DNA of 64,000 nt from a virus: IMG/VR virus record IMGVR_UViG_3300028920_000032, positions 94,330-158,329 of that record. One strand, given 5' to 3'. The notes under the pieces were generated by a model. It was not told the origin of the DNA. It searched no databases and was given only the letters and a program-made list of their open reading frames with translations. A program made the translations under genes and the position numbers. Shown here in pieces: positions 3,553 to 48,979 of this stretch (the first letter of the stretch is position 1; each line of letters starts with the position of its first letter).

Positions 3553-3754
3553 TCTTCTTCTTCCAATCTTTTAGAGCTTTTTCATACTTTTCATCTGTCT
3601 TATAATCTTCTCTCTTTGGGCAATTACCCTTTCTTCTTCCTTTCCCGGCTAAACCTGGTCCCGGACCCGAACCATCGGGAACACCACGTGTACCTTTATA
3701 GCCTTCATTTTTTAATTCTTTGTTTAATTTATCTAAGGTGTCTTTAAGTTCCAT
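3545..3754 (-). CDS. Small basic hypothetical protein
   Basis: GGAGG RBS before MELKD; RGVPDGSGPGPG motif. Confidence 0.5.
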   Translation of the reverse strand: MELKDTLDKLNKELKNEGYKGTRGVPDGSGPGPGLAGKGRRKGNCPKREDYKTDEKYEKALKDWKKKNV

Positions 3755-4247
3755 TGTTTCCTCCAACTTTTTTACCAATTCTATTTATTGTTATGTTGTT
3801 CAAGTGATCGCATTCATGTTGAAAAACTTGAGCAAACAAACCATCTAATTCCTGCTTTACTCTTTTAACATTATCGCTAGAGTCTATTTCATCCCAGCTT
3901 GCTATAATTTTTTTATGCCTGGTAACAAGATATGTATCTTTACCATAAGTTAAACAACCTTCTTCAACTTGATATATTTCTTTTCCTTTGAATTTATATT
4001 CAGCATTAATAAAGACACACCAATTACCCATATTAACTTGACCTTTAACTTTAGTATCTGGTCGAAATGCCACAAAAAACTTTTTTCTGATACCAACTTG
4101 AATAGCAGCCAAACCAATACCATTTTTACGACTACATAGTGATATCATTTGTTTAAGGATTTTACTTTGTAAAAGTTTAAGAATGTCTTTACGCGTCAAC
4201 TCAGCACAAGTAACATTCTCAACATACTGTGGTTTTTCTAAAGTCAT
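3744..4247 (-). CDS. def: Peptide deformylase
   Basis: GIGLAAIQVG, EGCL, QHECDHL motifs; start moved to the RBS-supported MTLEK. Confidence 0.93.
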   Translation of the reverse strand: MTLEKPQYVENVTCAELTRKDILKLLQSKILKQMISLCSRKNGIGLAAIQVGIRKKFFVAFRPDTKVKGQVNMGNWCVFINAEYKFKGKEIYQVEEGCLTYGKDTYLVTRHKKIIASWDEIDSSDNVKRVKQELDGLFAQVFQHECDHLNNITINRIGKKVGGNNGT

Positions 4248-23259: not shown

Positions 23260-23334
23260 TGCCAGGAAAGAGATTCGAACTCTTACTGTACAGTTTTTGA
23301 AACTGTCGACTCCTACCAGTTGGTCTACCCTGGC
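23260..23334 (-). tRNA. tRNA-Leu(CAA), short variable arm
   Basis: GCCAGGG/TCCTGGC, ACAGT-TTCAAAA-ACTGT. Confidence 0.85.
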
Positions 23335-24557: not shown

Positions 24558-24568
24558 ATTAACTCCTA

Positions 24569-24644
24569 TGCTCCAGACAGGACTCGAACCTGCACTAATT
24601 CATGACCTCAGCATGACGACTCCTACCAATTGGTCTACTGGAGC
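24569..24644 (-). tRNA. tRNA-Leu(GAG), short variable arm
   Basis: GCTCCAG/CTGGAGC, TCATG-CTGAGGT-CATGA. Confidence 0.85.
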
Positions 24645-24773
24645 AAAACTATCTTTTTGATTTAGTTGTAGATTTATATTTACAATTTTCAGGATTGCAA
24701 TCTTTTCTACCACTAAATCTGTTTGTACATCCTCTATCTTTGTTATAATATATACAATTAATTCGTATTCTCA

Positions 24774-36679: not shown

Positions 36680-36759
36680 TAGCAGAGCCCAGGAGTCGAA
36701 CCTGGTATCGCCGGGATATGAGCCCGGAATGGTTTATATGTCCGTTCCACTCGCCTGCG
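36680..36759 (-). tRNA. tRNA-fMet(CAT)-like, irregular acceptor stem and D-loop
   Basis: C1:T72 mismatch, CCGGG-CTCATAT-CCCGG with three G-C pairs. Confidence 0.7.
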
Positions 36760-40042: not shown

Positions 40043-40117
40043 AATAGTACTCCTTTTAATTAGCTTTCGTAAAAACATATTCTTGTTCTGAGAAAATAAT
40101 ATAATAGCTATAATTTT

Positions 40118-40192
40118 TGCCGCCGAGTGGATTCGAACCACCCCCATCTTGGTTCTAAGCCAAGCGACTCCTTCCAGCTGGTCTACGACGGC
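40118..40192 (-). tRNA. tRNA-Leu(TAG), short variable arm
   Basis: GCCGTCG/CGGCGGC, CTTGG-CTTAGAA-CCAAG. Confidence 0.85.
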
Positions 40193-41535
40193 ATATTTTT
40201 TATTAGTTCTGGTTTCCCTAGATAGAAACCTTGAATTGAATCGACACCTATTTGCTCTAGTTTTATTATAGTGTCACTGTCTTCAACAAATTCAGCAACA
40301 GTTATTATATTTAACATATGAGCAATATCATTAATATGTTTAATTATTGCATATGTTATTGGATCATTAATGTCTTTTATAAATGAACCATCAATTTTAA
40401 GAATGTCAACAGGTAGAGTTCTTAAATATGTAAGAGACGACATTCCTTTTCCAAAATCATCTAAAGCAAATTTACAACCGAGATCTCTGATTGCATTTAT
40501 AAATTTAATACAAACAGTTGAATTAGATAATATAACATTCTCAGTTATTTCAAATATTATTTTTTCTGGTGGCACTTTAAATCTTTTTAATTGGTCTGAA
40601 ATAAACTTAACTAGCTGAGGATCAGCAACTGTTTGACCTGAAAGCTTAATTAAAAAATTTATATTATTAATTTTATCATAATTAGCAAATACTTTCATTA
40701 TCACTAAACGATCAATATGAGGCATCAAATTATATTTTTCTGCAAGTGGTATTAACACTGCTGTAGGTATTGAGTCTTTCTTATTGCCCCTAACTAAAAT
40801 TTCAAAACTTCTAAAATTTTTATTATTTAAAGGATATATTTTCTGTGCAAATAGATCAACATCACCTTTTTCAATCATTGTTGAAATTTCAGAAATTTTT
40901 TCAGTGTTTTCTTGCTGTGCTTTAATTATTAAATCATCTTTATTGGGAGATATATGTATACTATTTCCACCAGCATTTTTTGCAATATAACAAGCATTAT
41001 CTGCAGCTATCATTATTTTAGTAAAATCATCTGCATATTTTGGATCTATTGTAGATATCCCTATGCTGGCACTTATATGAAATATTTTCCCATCCCAAAC
41101 AAAATTATAGTTATTGATAGCTTTTAATACTTTCTTTGCTAATTTAGCTGCAATTACTAAATTACAATTTTTTATAATAATTGCAAATTCATCTCCGCCT
41201 AATCTTGCAACAGTATCATCAGATCTTAGACATTTTTTAAATAATTGAGCTACTTGTTTTAAAAGTAGATCACCAGCAGTATGACCACATGAATCATTAA
41301 CTGCTTTAAATTTATCTAAATCAATATAAAATAAATAATGATGTTTGTTATTTTTCTTAGCGTCTAAATATAATTTACTTAATATTTTTTCAAACATTCT
41401 TCTATTATACAGATTTGTTAAATAATCAAATTGTGCATGATATTTTGTTGTATTGTTATTTTTTATAATTATTTTGTATATTCTATATACAAGGAATGAA
41501 AATAAAATAATAGAAGCTATTATCAATTCTGTCAA
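40183..41535 (-). CDS. Membrane-anchored GGDEF-EAL c-di-GMP enzyme
   Basis: DYLTNLYNRR, DLDKFKAVND..GH..GD, RLGGDEF; EIL, FEITE, LDDFG, KIDGSF, AEFVE, QGFY. Confidence 0.93.
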   Translation of the reverse strand: MTELIIASIILFSFLVYRIYKIIIKNNNTTKYHAQFDYLTNLYNRRMFEKILSKLYLDAKKNNKHHYLFYIDLDKFKAVNDSCGHTAGDLLLKQVAQLFKKCLRSDDTVARLGGDEFAIIIKNCNLVIAAKLAKKVLKAINNYNFVWDGKIFHISASIGISTIDPKYADDFTKIMIAADNACYIAKNAGGNSIHISPNKDDLIIKAQQENTEKISEISTMIEKGDVDLFAQKIYPLNNKNFRSFEILVRGNKKDSIPTAVLIPLAEKYNLMPHIDRLVIMKVFANYDKINNINFLIKLSGQTVADPQLVKFISDQLKRFKVPPEKIIFEITENVILSNSTVCIKFINAIRDLGCKFALDDFGKGMSSLTYLRTLPVDILKIDGSFIKDINDPITYAIIKHINDIAHMLNIITVAEFVEDSDTIIKLEQIGVDSIQGFYLGKPELIKNMPS

Positions 41536-41992
41536 CTCTATCTCCCTTCTAGTTCGACATCGCCGAACATAATCGCCGCCTTTTTATCACCACTTTCTTT
41601 TTTTTCACTTTTTGTTTCAACATTCTTATTATGTTTAAGCCAACAATTGTGACATACAAATGTACTTCCTAAAAAATAACCTTTTGTAAATTCTTCTTTA
41701 GCTCCACATAATCCACAAGTTATAAAAGTTGGAATAGGATTAGAATTTGTCATATATTAACACCTCCTAGTAAATTATAAAAGCTTGTCGATTATATTAT
41801 CTAAGATCATCTAAATATTGCTTTCTTTGATGCCATGGTAAACTGAGATATTCTTTCTTAAACTTATAAGCTTCTTGCTTAACAACGTCTGGATTTTCTT
41901 CAATTACTTTAGCATATCGATTAGCAATATACTTTCTTATAACTTTTGAAGCTTTCTTATTCATATATTCTCCTTCCAATTATATGATCAAA

Positions 41993-42063
41993 TATGTCTT
42001 ACAGGATTCGAACCTGTGACTCCAGCCCAATCACCGGCGCTCTAACCGCTAAACCAAAGACAT
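41993..42063 (-). tRNA. tRNA-like gene with aberrant 6-nt anticodon loop (undetermined or pseudo)
   Basis: ATGTCTT/AAGACAT acceptor, intact T arm ACAGG-TTCGAAT-CCTGT, arm CCGGT-GATTGG-GCTGG. Confidence 0.6.
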
Positions 42064-42131
42064 AACCCAATCTAAATGCGCGACAAAGATTGTTTCGCCA
42101 TCAAGCAGTGCGCATTGCTTGTTATAGGCTA

Positions 42132-43880: not shown

Positions 43881-43893
43881 AACATTTCCTTTC

Positions 43894-44017
43894 TGGAGTA
43901 GGGGAGAGTTGAACTCCCGTCTTCTATCAAAGCAACCTTTTAAGGTACAAGGATTTTCGGATCTAGTGCATTTACGTCATCCTTAGTCTTATCAAGAATC
44001 GAATCCTGAACTACCCC
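43894..44017 (-). ncRNA. ssrA: Miniature tmRNA (124 nt)
   Basis: 5' GGGGTAGTTCAGGATTCGA, 3' GACGGGAGTTCAACTCTCCCCTACTCCA; G3:U70 Ala identity; no D-stem; internal TAAAT-GCA resume context with ORF ALDPKILVP*. Confidence 0.8.
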
Positions 44018-45689: not shown

Positions 45690-45828
45690 AAGTAAGCAAG
45701 TTAGCGAATAAAGAAAATTTAAACTCTACCAACTGAGCTACCACCAAGCTTTGCTTGATGAGCAGGACTCGAACCTGCGACCTTTTGTTTTTAAGACAAA
45801 CGATAACCTTTATTCAATCAGCTTACTT
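45690..45828 (-). ncRNA. yrlA: YrlA-type Y RNA (circularly permuted tRNA-mimic domain)
   Basis: AAGTAAGC/GCTTACTT stem, TGATT..AGGTTATCG, then TTTGT-CTTAAAA-ACAAA, T arm GCAGG-TTCGAGT-CCTGC, closed acceptor CATCAAGC/GCTTGGTG, D arm TAGCTCAGTTGGTAGAG, AACTTG. Confidence 0.88.
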
Positions 45829-45908: not shown

Positions 45909-45996
45909 TGGGCCGAGTAGGACTCGAACCTACGATGTTTGCACTTAGGCGCCGGGTTTACAGCCCGGGGCGTTCGCCGCTACGCTATACCGACCC
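45909..45996 (-). tRNA. tRNA-Tyr(GTA)
   Basis: CCGGG-CTGTAAA-CCCGG, long variable arm. Confidence 0.88.
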
Positions 45997-46427: not shown

Positions 46428-46502
46428 CTCCGGAAGTAGGATTCGAACCTACGACACTCTGCTTAACAGGCAGCCACTCTGACCAGACTGAGTTACTCCG
46501 GA
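46428..46502 (-). tRNA. tRNA-Asn(GTT)
   Basis: TCCGGAG/TTCCGGA, loop CTGTTAA, G73. Confidence 0.9.
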
Positions 46503-46575
46503 ATGTAATTAAAAATCTAATTTTGCTGATTTCTTGGATTTGTTGTCATTACCATATTATAAACACCATAAAAAT

Positions 46576-46649
46576 TCAGGCATCCCAGATTCGAACTGGA
46601 GATCTCGAGTTCCCAAAACTCGCGGAGTGACCAACTCTCCCAATGCCTG
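46576..46649 (-). tRNA. tRNA-Pro(TGG)
   Basis: CAGGCAT/ATGCCTG, CGAGT-TTTGGGA-ACTCG. Confidence 0.88.
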
Positions 46650-47158
46650 TTCTACTCTTCACTCTCTTTAATCTCTTTAATTACTACCTTTCTGAAATAA
46701 AAAGTTAGCTATTAAAATCGAAATAATAAATACTACCATTTTTATAAATATGCTTACTTCTTTTGTTCTAAGTTCAGAATATGGTTTCCAGAATACCCAG
46801 ACGGCTTCAGTATATATTGAAGATTTACCAAATGATAATACAAATTCTATTATAGTAATCCATAATGCACAAGTTATATAACCAGCAAGTACAAGTGTTA
46901 AAAAAATTATTATTTTTGATGATGTACTCATATCTCTTTTAAGCTACTAAACATCTTTTTAAACTTTCTTTTAGATTTAATTTCTTTCACAATAATTTCA
47001 CCTATTTGGATGCTTTTATAAAAACAGTAGAATATTGTTAATATAATTGGACTGCAACCAGTTAATATAAAACTACTACTCTTTGCAAGAATACAAAATA
47101 AATAAATTATAATCTGTAACAATATAACAAACAATAACATATTATATTCCTTTCTAAT

Positions 47159-47197
47159 TGGGCGCCCTGGGGTTTGAACCCAGCAAACACTACTTTA
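47159..47197 (-). pseudogene. Orphan 3' half of an interrupted tRNA
   Basis: TAAAGTAGTGTTTG-CTGGG-TTCAAAC-CCCAG-GGCGCCC-A. Confidence 0.7.
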
Positions 47198-47200
47198 ATA

Positions 47201-47287
47201 TAGGGGAGGTGGGATTTGAACCCACGAAATCCTTTCGGCCTTCCATTTATAAGATGGATGCTACTAACCAGACTGAGCTACTCCCCT
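47201..47287 (-). tRNA. tRNA-Ile(TAT) with long variable arm
   Basis: AGGGGAG/CTCCCCT, TCCAT-CTTATAA-ATGGA, variable arm containing CC-GAAA-GG. Confidence 0.8.
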
Positions 47288-47758
47288 ATGTTTTCTGCCT
47301 TTAAATCTATATTTCTCTGTTTGTTGATGACAATTAAGACATAATGCCTCGAGGTTATCTCTATCGTTATTTTTTTTATTATTGTCTTTATGATGTATCT
47401 CTAAATATATAGGCTTACCAAGCCATTCAGAATTGCCACAATTGTTGCATTTACCTTTTTGTTCTTCTTTAACCTTTCTTTTTATTTGACTATGAGACAT
47501 AAGTTCATATTTATTTGAATCATAGATCATTTGTCTTGCTCTTTTTTGTGATTCATTGCCTTTTCTCCCTGCTGAAGCGGGCCAGCCTCCGGTATAAGTA
47601 GTCCCACTAAATGGTTTCCCTTTCAACTTTTTACTTACTTTTTCATTTATTTCTTTACGCTTAGCCTTAGTACTAAACCCTCTTGCACATTTAGATGAAC
47701 AAAATCTACCTGACCCATAAGAGCCATCATGCTCCTTATTACAGTTTTCACATTTCAT
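47264..47758 (-). CDS. HNH homing endonuclease with N-terminal Zn finger
   Basis: CENC...GSYGSGRFCS.KC; CNNC...LEIHHKD...NN...NL..LC.NCH. Confidence 0.9.
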   Translation of the reverse strand: MKCENCNKEHDGSYGSGRFCSSKCARGFSTKAKRKEINEKVSKKLKGKPFSGTTYTGGWPASAGRKGNESQKRARQMIYDSNKYELMSHSQIKRKVKEEQKGKCNNCGNSEWLGKPIYLEIHHKDNNKKNNDRDNLEALCLNCHQQTEKYRFKGRKHRGVAQSG

Positions 47759-47819
47759 ATTCGAACCTCCAAGTGTATATAATATTATCTTACACCTATA
47801 AGTTCGAATCTTTCATTTT

Positions 47820-47850
47820 GAAGCTGCTTCACCAATTTGCATAGACGCCT
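47820..47850 (-). pseudogene. Orphan 5' half of the interrupted tRNA
   Basis: AGGCGTC-TA-TGCAAATTGGTGAAGCA-G-CTTC; acceptor strand pairs with GGCGCCC at 47160-47166. Confidence 0.65.
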
Positions 47851-47854
47851 AAAA

Positions 47855-48087
47855 AATTATTATTCCAGTAGCCAGGATTCTGTTTTATCCTATCATCTAT
47901 CTCAACATTAAATGCTGGTCTTGCGACTGCTGCCTACCCGATCATTATAGAACTGCTCACCTTCTAGATCTTATTTGGCATTGCACCCTCAGTGGTTCAA
48001 ACGAATAAAAATCCTCCCACTTTAAAAGCAGTGGTGTCCTGAGCTTCCTCTATACTTAAAGTACAGCGATAGGTCAGAATAATAATT
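47855..48087 (-). ncRNA. rnpB: Minimal type-A RNase P RNA (catalytic domain only)
   Basis: P1 AATTATTATTC/GAATAATAATT, P2 CCTATCG/TGATAGG, P3 CTGTAC/GTATAG, GAGGAAGCTCAGGA with ACAGAATCCTGGCT giving P4 with bulged U, P5 CACC/GGTG, P15 GCC/GGC with L15 AAATAA/GGGTA, P16 GATC/GATC, P17 TAGAA/TTCTA, AGATAGATGA. Confidence 0.88.
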
Positions 48088-48389
48088 AAAGTGCAGGTAA
48101 TATGTAATTCAGGCTTCATTGCTATAGCTCCACCCAAAATTACTACCTGCACTTGGTAATCTAGCGGGGTAATTGCTAGATTTATAAATAAAGGTTTTTG
48201 TAAAACCAATACATTCTAAATTATGCAATATTGTTTCCTTCTCTTAGCCAACTATCTTCTTGCATATCGCCTAGAGAATCTCACTTCTCTAACCGTATTC
48301 TAGCTTTATCTGTCAAAAATCAAACTTCTTCCAATATTCTTCATCTGCCATGTTTTTCATTATATATAACAAACGAAGCTTTTTCCCAT

Positions 48390-48415
48390 AAAAAAAGCCC
48401 TCTGTATAGAGGGCT
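48390..48415 (-). terminator. Intrinsic terminator upstream of the rnpB/tRNA block
   Basis: AGCCCTCT-ATAC-AGAGGGCT followed by a T-run. Confidence 0.8.
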
Positions 48416-48592
48416 ATTATAATCATAAATACTGGTACCTCTACAACATCAATCTGCCTGTTCTTGCTTCTACACCATTAATTTTATATAAATTAAATGA
48501 TGGGGCTATGGGATTATGTTTACAGAGTGACCATCTAGTCATTTCTATTATTCTCCTTATTCTCATTTATCTTTAGTATATATGCAAAAAAT

Positions 48593-48979
48593 CTAGAATA
48601 TTCCCAAAATTATCTCATTTTCTTCACCGCGAAGAAGTCTTTTAACACTTTCTTTTTTAGTAATAGCTATATCTTCTTCTGTATCTGGAAAATACTTTAC
48701 TATTGTGTCTAATCCATAGTCAGTAATTTTCCAATAACCAGATATTTTATCAGTGCCGACGACTGTATTATAAACTTCAATTGGAGGACTACTATAATGT
48801 TTAAGTAGCTTCATTGATCTAAGCTCATATAAAGTACCTTTAGGAATTTTCAAATATTTAGTTAAAGATCTAGTTGGTACCAACAAATTATCATGACTAT
48901 AATAAATTTTTCTTAGATAAAAATATTTTTTACAGATCTTCATTTTCAGCTGTTGGCTCTGGACATGGTGTAAATTCAA
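48593..48979 (-). CDS. Hypothetical protein
   Basis: ORF; true start probably MKICKK. Confidence 0.45.
   Translation of the reverse strand: MNLHHVQSQQLKMKICKKYFYLRKIYYSHDNLLVPTRSLTKYLKIPKGTLYELRSMKLLKHYSSPPIEVYNTVVGTDKISGYWKITDYGLDTIVKYFPDTEEDIAITKKESVKRLLRGEENEIILGIF

Follow-up and report, generated by a model that had tools for sequence, protein, structure and literature searches.

The window that we analyzed is the final 64-kb stretch of a virus record of 158,329 bp, which has 30% G+C and is about 70% complete by the estimate of CheckV. Its gene content is of the phage type, with NrdD, a DNA ligase, and several HNH genes, and the 31 tRNA genes called by ARAGORN are all on the minus strand. 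When the minus strand is read from 5' to 3' at the locus of interest, an RNase P RNA-like gene 233 nt in length terminates 2 nt before the 5' piece of a tRNA, and there follow a short leader, an HNH endonuclease gene, an intact tRNA-Ile(UAU), and the 3' piece of a tRNA (Table 1). The tRNA-Ile(UAU) abuts the 3' piece with zero spacer, and an ORF of 70 amino acids starts 18 nt past the 3' piece.

Table 1. Features at the interrupted tRNA locus, in window coordinates, with the second tRNA-Tyr gene of the array
Feature	Position	Strand	Description
Reduced RNase P RNA-like gene	47853..48085	-	Rfam RF00010, 68.9 bits, E 2.6e-20; below gathering score 100
5' remnant, tRNA-Tyr(GUA)-family gene	47819..47850	-	Acceptor strand, class-II D arm, G26, possible 5' anticodon-stem strand
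Cassette leader, 60 nt	47759..47818	-	9 nt plus hairpin 47809-47759 ending directly before ATG
HNH homing-type endonuclease gene, 164 aa	47264..47758	-	Pfam HNH, phrog_10822
Intact tRNA-Ile(UAU)	47201..47288	-	ARAGORN (47288/7-47201/0); Rfam tRNA, 55.8 bits
3' remnant, same tRNA-Tyr gene	47159..47200	-	17-nt variable-arm segment, T arm, acceptor strand, A73
Intact tRNA-Tyr(GUA)	45909..45996	-	ARAGORN; D arm differs from that of the 5' remnant

The tRNA shapes of this phage depart from the usual class rules. Three tRNA-Leu genes (23260-23334, 24568-24645, and 40117-40193, minus strand) are just 75 to 78 nt long and are without a long variable arm, whereas the tRNA-Ile(UAU) is long-armed. Moreover, one ARAGORN call (41992-42064, minus strand) is a tRNA-??? 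with a two-base anticodon (tt), and it matches the Rfam tRNA model at 46.6 bits. A scan of the window for uncalled T arms followed by an acceptor strand returned four G+C-rich modules on the minus strand of the tRNA array, of which two fall within tmRNA-like and Y-RNA-like matches, one stands at 36681-36705, and one is the 3' piece considered here. The tmRNA match (43891-44017, minus strand, in the tRNA array) is 127 nt long, scores 44.8 bits with RF00023 against a gathering score of 47, and terminates in an orphan T arm and acceptor module. At 45698-45817 (minus strand), just past a tRNA-Ala, are two overlapping matches, a 64-nt one that is tRNA-like (37.4 bits) and one that is YrlA/Y-RNA-like (34.9 bits). 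The module at 36681-36705 (minus strand; CCAGG/TTCGACT/CCTGG) is G+C rich, lies about 170 nt past a tRNA-Met, and is in no tRNA or Rfam match. Finally, we note that a reduced RNase P RNA-like match was also found on another phage contig (L051, 1190-1446, plus strand, 46.2 bits), with a tRNA-Lys 3 nt further on.

A first-pass annotation of this DNA, made from the sequence alone, had recognized the 5' half and the matching 3' half of a tRNA on either side of some 620 nt, and the two halves are real. The 5' piece (32 nt) consists of the acceptor strand AGGCGTC, U8 and A9, a D arm with a 3-bp stem and an 11-nt loop, G26, and the sequence CTTCA. The 3' piece (42 nt) consists of a variable-type segment of 17 nt, a perfect T arm (CTGGG/TTCAAAC/CCCAG), the acceptor strand GGCGCCC, and A73. 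The insert between them is 618 nt long, and the acceptor strands of the two pieces pair at six of seven positions; A1.C72 is the one mismatch, and the pairs comprise five of the Watson-Crick type and one G.U. Four heptamers within 2.5 kb upstream of the orphan T arm pair with its acceptor strand at six or more of seven positions, but just one, which starts at 47850, leads into U8 and a true D arm. The CTTCA of the 5' piece pairs with a TAAAG of the 3' piece at four of five positions, which would allow a reading in which the variable loop is short and a TAT is left over in the anticodon loop. Neither piece was called as a tRNA by itself, either by ARAGORN or by Rfam, and when sequence cut at the junctions was searched against Rfam for a truncated tRNA, matches were at chance level only (mascRNA on the T arm, E 2.3; ToxI, E 0.51). 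Exact-pattern scans of IMG/VR with 28 nt of the 5' piece and with the 24 nt of T arm and acceptor strand were both without a match, and no recent paralogue of the pieces was found among the other 31 tRNAs of the phage. At the junctions, we saw neither a target duplication nor clear microhomology.

The identity of the broken gene is a new result of the present analysis. When the 5' piece was used in BLAST against phage genomes, the matches were annotated tRNA-Tyr genes, and its 19-nt D arm is identical in the tRNA-Tyr of Bacillus phage BCP78 and of Fusobacterium phage FNU2. A scan of IMG/VR with the same 19-mer returned 26 contigs, and in all 26 it belonged to an intact tRNA-Tyr(GTA) as called by ARAGORN. 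The first-pass annotation had asked for relatives with an uninterrupted allele, and these genes supply one at the level of the family. Twenty distinct sequences from those genes made up the family alignment. The pieces share with the tRNA-Tyr family the layout of acceptor and D arm, a G or A at position 26, the T arm, and A73, and their variable segment of 17 nt compares with 15 to 18 nt in the family. Thus, the class-II D arm signature, the long variable arm, and A73 are all present, whereas the pieces lack the GUA anticodon loop, one strand of the anticodon stem, and a pair at 1:72: this position is A.C here and G1-C72 in the family (C1-G72 in one gene). Together the pieces come to 74 nt, against 83 to 86 nt in the family, and the roughly 12 nt that are missing correspond in size to an anticodon loop together with the 3' anticodon-stem strand. 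Because the D arm was that of tRNA-Tyr(GTA) in 26 of 26 contigs, and because the other family features are shared, we conclude that the broken gene is, as judged by sequence, a phage-type gene of the tRNA-Tyr(GUA) family in which about 12 nt have been replaced by the 618-nt insert. The anticodon arm had been named as the site of insertion, and that location holds, but the cut was not a clean one, since some 12 nt of the tRNA are gone.

Removal of the insert cannot rebuild this copy of tRNA-Tyr. For each of the 2,070 combinations of 46 end points for the 5' piece with 45 start points for the 3' piece, we made the joined sequence and searched it with ARAGORN. At the default threshold no natural tRNA was found among them, and the 12 calls that were made were all artefacts that borrowed bases, or a whole arm, from the nested tRNA. 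Lowering the threshold to 80% gave 728 calls, many with mutually contradictory "anticodons." One such reading made the broken gene a tRNA-Ile(UAU), with a CTTCA/TAAAG stem, a C.A mismatch, a loop with two C residues borrowed from the end of the nested tRNA, and a variable loop of 9 nt. We rejected it as the main reading: it appears at the relaxed threshold only, among contradictory calls, and fits the class-II D arm poorly. The gene is 12 nt short, has the A1.C72 mismatch, and offers no clean join, and neither a group I core nor an RtcB or tRNA-splicing endonuclease was found (see below). We therefore conclude that this copy of tRNA-Tyr is a pseudogene in two pieces, and the earlier claim that the interrupted gene had been destroyed stands. 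Tyrosine decoding is covered by the separate intact tRNA-Tyr. The D and T arms of the pieces are flawless and the acceptor stem has a single defect, which fits a recent event but might also reflect selection on them.

The HNH gene within the insert is intact. Its product matched Pfam HNH at 22.1 bits (cut-off, 21.4), came just below the cut-off for HNH_3 (23.9 against 24.8 bits), found its best match among many PHROG HNH families in phrog_10822 (E 5e-19), and had a distant match to McrA in the PDB. The protein has an N-terminal CxxC...C..C zinc module and an intact HH...N...H core between CxxC pairs, and the gene is present in a single copy in the record. The ORF has a start codon, a ribosome-binding site, and a leader hairpin of its own. 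Its stop codon (TAG, 47266-47264) lies inside the tRNA-Ile, such that the first 24 nt of the tRNA are also the last HNH codons and the stop; the ORF does run into an intact tRNA, as had been noticed. On sequence grounds, the HNH gene is of the free-standing homing type and is not housed within a self-splicing intron or an intein. The interval had been called an intronless homing element, and we agree, as it is not a recognizable intron.

The leader hairpin carries both the GGAGG ribosome-binding site and a GTTCGAA motif in its 3' strand. It folds at -19.9 kcal/mol, with a z-score of -5.9 relative to shuffled sequence. Hairpins of the same design but with different stem sequences precede the HNH homologues at loci L004, L058, and L002, with z-scores of -5.7, -6.0, and -3.3, respectively. 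Moreover, a GTTCGAA just before the ATG, in the 3' strand of the hairpin, is common to the leaders of the HNH family. By analogy with other nuclease genes of tRNA clusters, the hairpin of the leader, together with the tRNA overlap, probably keeps expression of the HNH gene low.

How the cassette is built becomes clear from the relatives of its nuclease. The HNH protein has 975 homologues at an E value of 1e-10 or lower, none of them above 55% identity except copies of itself. We examined 49 loci, 45 from IMG/VR and 4 from an assembly collection (L001 to L045 and L054 to L058). A tRNA on the same strand lies within 300 nt of the homologue in 42 of the 49, and in 42 of the 49 the homologue is located between two intact tRNA genes, not within one. 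The upstream tRNA usually ends 53 to 75 nt before the start codon, and the ORF usually ends 7 to 27 nt inside the downstream tRNA, or no more than 9 nt before it, whatever the identity of that downstream tRNA. The leader of 60 nt and the overlap of 24 nt with the tRNA-Ile in the window match this layout. We conclude that the insert is therefore one standard unit of the family, which starts just past the 3' end of an upstream tRNA and extends through the downstream tRNA to its 3' end. Its location inside a tRNA gene rather than between two is the unusual feature, and, as the homologue stands between intact tRNAs in 42 of 49 loci, the insertion here may have been an off-site accident.

A search for split tRNAs around the HNH homologues at the 49 loci found the nested design in L044 only; everything else was either a tRNA with a group I intron or a chance pairing. 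In L044 (2814-3832), a split tRNA with acceptor pairing at seven of seven positions surrounds a tRNA-Met(CAT) and a nuclease ORF. That ORF is interrupted by a stop codon and shares just the N-terminal zinc module with the HNH protein of the window, and the 3' piece of the split tRNA begins with CATAA. The closest IMG/VR homologue (L001, 3001-3952; 47% identity) has its stop codon inside a tRNA that contains a group I intron (3692-3888), and thus one tRNA is associated with both a free-standing nuclease gene and an intron. Across the 49 loci, the N-terminal zinc module, a CxxC segment of 45 amino acids, is 52 to 88% identical (above 80% in about 20 loci), and the C-terminal parts differ. The module may be a shared tRNA-gene-binding domain, since nearly all of the genes that carry it lie in tRNA gaps. 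Finally, we note that a cultured jumbo phage, Yersinia phage fHe-Yen9-04 (NC_042116.1, 299755-300573), has an HNH gene 38% identical to that of the window (L062), and that the gene comes directly after a 121-nt "tRNA-Undet" and near a 126-nt "tRNA-Pseudo," as these are annotated.

The tRNA carried by the cassette has an extra variable arm of about 14 to 16 nt on a body like that of an ordinary phage tRNA-Ile. AUA is the commonest Ile codon of the phage, at 42 per 1,000 codons and 49% of Ile codons in 88 long ORFs, and a UAU anticodon is found in none of the other tRNAs of the record. Because the most used Ile codon falls to the sole tRNA with this anticodon, we infer that the cargo is probably useful to the phage. 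The cassette had been proposed to carry a replacement for the tRNA that it destroyed. An intact tRNA is indeed present in the insert, but it is a tRNA-Ile(UAU), the broken gene was one for tRNA-Tyr(GUA), and an intact tRNA-Tyr is found elsewhere, and thus the idea of replacement is unsupported.

The arrangement is not an assembly artefact, as the same HNH protein with the same neighbors recurs on two further contigs of the same phage. A strain variant that is 97% identical (L061, a 1,148-bp JGI contig) starts inside the HNH gene and contains the end of that gene, the tRNA-Ile, and the 3' piece. Between variant and window, the tRNA-Ile differs at none of 88 positions, and the 3' piece differs by one substitution in the T loop. 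The variant also has an extra ORF for a membrane protein of 94 amino acids (640-930) between an 84-aa ORF and a tRNA-Pro, which is absent from the window. The only more distant relative found was a Logan contig of 13,972 bp (SRR13394437), in which ThyX is 77% and the 84-aa ORF product 96% identical at the protein level. In the gene list of that contig from ThyX to the 84-aa ORF, the longest ORF is 107 amino acids, none is the size of the HNH gene, and the interval is about 670 to 690 nt shorter than in the window. The list fits a difference by presence or absence of the HNH gene; a gene list alone cannot show an intact tRNA-Tyr. The GGDEF-EAL protein and ThyX, when used as queries, found no relatives in IMG/VR.

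We think it probable, taken as a whole, that a cassette of HNH gene and tRNA-Ile replaced the middle of a tRNA-Tyr gene and left a pseudogene behind, and this is the best explanation of the locus that we have. A phage-type tRNA-Tyr(GUA) gene would once have stood directly after the reduced RNase P RNA gene. The anticodon loop and 3' anticodon-stem strand of the tRNA-Tyr would then have given way to the cassette, whose components are a hairpin leader that would hide the ribosome-binding site, the HNH ORF, and the tRNA gene that contains the stop codon of the ORF. We infer that the event was an insertion rather than a rearrangement and that it went by way of a break and its repair: the tRNA-Tyr gene may have suffered a double-strand break, through the action of this enzyme or from another cause, and repair could have captured the unit, with the loss of about 12 nt. 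Loss of the Tyr copy would have been tolerated because a second tRNA-Tyr exists. The cassette, in turn, may persist because it is selfish and because its tRNA would aid the translation of an AT-rich genome.

Alternatively, the pieces might be retained because they do something. In what is the main rival explanation, and an unlikely one, acceptor stem, T arm, and D arm would fold across the insert as a tRNA-like handle, at which RNase P and the 3' enzymes would cut, freeing the 3' end of the RNase P RNA and trimming the transcript of the HNH gene and tRNA-Ile. The RNase P RNA-like gene does end 2 nt before A1 of the 5' piece, and the one in L051 is followed by a tRNA-Lys after 3 nt. There is almost no flaw in the acceptor stem, D arm, or T arm, the two acceptor strands are paired with each other in the minimum-energy fold of the whole 701-nt RNA, and no sigma-70-like promoter stands out within the cassette, so that co-transcription is plausible. 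That same fold, however, is not unusually stable (z-score of -1.6), and the A1.C72 mismatch falls at the very site where cleavage would take place. Moreover, the one variant available, which covers the 3' piece only, has 1 change in 42 nt, near the background of about 3%, and gives no sign of conservation. A broader version, quite unlikely in our estimation, is that the HNH family as a whole is a "tRNA-gap" mobile element that moves as a unit, one that extends exactly from one tRNA 3' end to the next and takes in leader, HNH gene, and the following tRNA, and that the outer pieces of a tRNA that has been hit survive as a handle, which would free the miniature RNase P RNA and control HNH expression.

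The locus might instead have arisen by local rearrangement or aberrant gene conversion. The starting point would have been a tRNA-Tyr, a leader, the HNH gene, and the tRNA-Ile in that order, and the 3' part of the tRNA-Tyr would have moved downstream. Such a starting order is the norm of the family, with its upstream tRNA, leader of 53 to 75 nt, HNH gene, and downstream tRNA, and the leader starts just where homology to tRNA-Tyr stops. The T arms of the tRNA-Ile and of the Tyr remnant are also similar. We nevertheless regard a rearrangement as very unlikely, because a move of 42 nt and a loss of 12 nt are more steps than a single insertion, and both T arms are complete, with no crossover visible between them.

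Could the insert be an intron of a kind not yet described, removed with the help of RNA or protein to give a working tRNA? Introns are close at hand in the family: homologous HNH genes stand right beside tRNAs with group I introns in L001 and L043, and the HNH gene of the window is placed where intron ORFs often are. The first-pass reader, however, saw no group I or group II core, and this was borne out. No Rfam match to a group I or group II intron was found at E of 10 or lower in 46500-48600, and no group I intron (RF00028) was found across the whole 158-kb record. The same group I model does detect the introns in the split tRNAs beside HNH homologues, at 3692-3888 of L001 (56.6 bits) and 3647-3932 of L043 (84.7 bits), and therefore works on this kind of phage. 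Searches of the record, estimated to be 70% complete, found no RtcB (PF01139) and no tRNA-splicing endonuclease (PF01974). Moreover, beyond the ORF and the nested tRNA the insert holds only 60 nt, and with about 12 nt absent, including the anticodon, no join yields a tRNA. Splicing of this sort is extremely improbable. Scarcely credible, finally, is a chance match between fragments of two unrelated tRNAs: the anticodon stems match poorly and neither piece is called as a tRNA alone, but the acceptor strands pair at six of seven positions, the 5' piece is the single candidate with a D arm within 2.5 kb, and a single class-II Tyr design, with its A73 and long variable segment, accommodates both pieces.

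Replacement of the middle of tRNA-Tyr by an HNH cassette, the reading that we prefer, would have consequences for the turnover of phage tRNAs, as a nuclease gene of tRNA gaps can carry its neighbor tRNA elsewhere and destroy another on arrival. It also sets a trap for annotation, since orphan tRNA pieces of this kind could pass for introns or for split tRNAs. Moreover, the pattern of the family, with a leader hairpin bearing a T-loop-like motif, a fixed distance to the upstream tRNA, and a borrowed stop codon, leads to a picture of insertion sites and of a possible restraint on expression that is testable at the family level.

Full-text searches of the literature turned up no account of a cassette of nuclease and tRNA that splits a tRNA gene. 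The same searches did give SegB and other free-standing endonucleases in tRNA clusters. SegB of phages T4 and T6 is a free-standing homing endonuclease of the tRNA gene cluster and recognizes a T-loop motif of tRNA (PMC2330249; PMC13096335). Processing of the primary transcript has been proposed to lower the expression of nucleases in tRNA clusters, and the SegB paper notes that the same was proposed for enzymes of T5 (PMC2330249). Both SegB and the HNH protein of the window are nucleases encoded by genes in phage tRNA clusters, and the HNH gene, like segB, is probably selfish. SegB is absent from related phages and is inherited with its flanking tRNA genes, and the HNH gene may be like it in both respects. 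SegB recognizes a T-loop motif, and the leaders of the HNH family carry the T-loop-like GTTCGAA. Unlike the HNH protein, however, SegB is a GIY-YIG enzyme, and unlike the cassette in the window, segB lies between intact tRNA genes and splits none.

Other HNH-type nuclease ORFs in a phage tRNA cluster are alike in type and location, and for these we found no report of an interrupted tRNA or of a nested one. In the anticodon loops of bacterial and phage tRNAs, group I introns that contain homing endonucleases also place a nuclease ORF at the anticodon arm, and homologous HNH genes adjoin such introns in L001 and L043. The insert in the window differs from them in that it has no ribozyme core, its exons cannot be rejoined, and a whole second tRNA lies inside it. 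A further parallel in form is nrdA of Aeromonas phage Aeh1, which is split by mobE, a free-standing endonuclease, into two protein pieces that still work together. There, as here, a free-standing endonuclease gene lies inside another gene and leaves it in two pieces. Unlike the halves of nrdA, however, the tRNA pieces in the window lack an anticodon and look dead.
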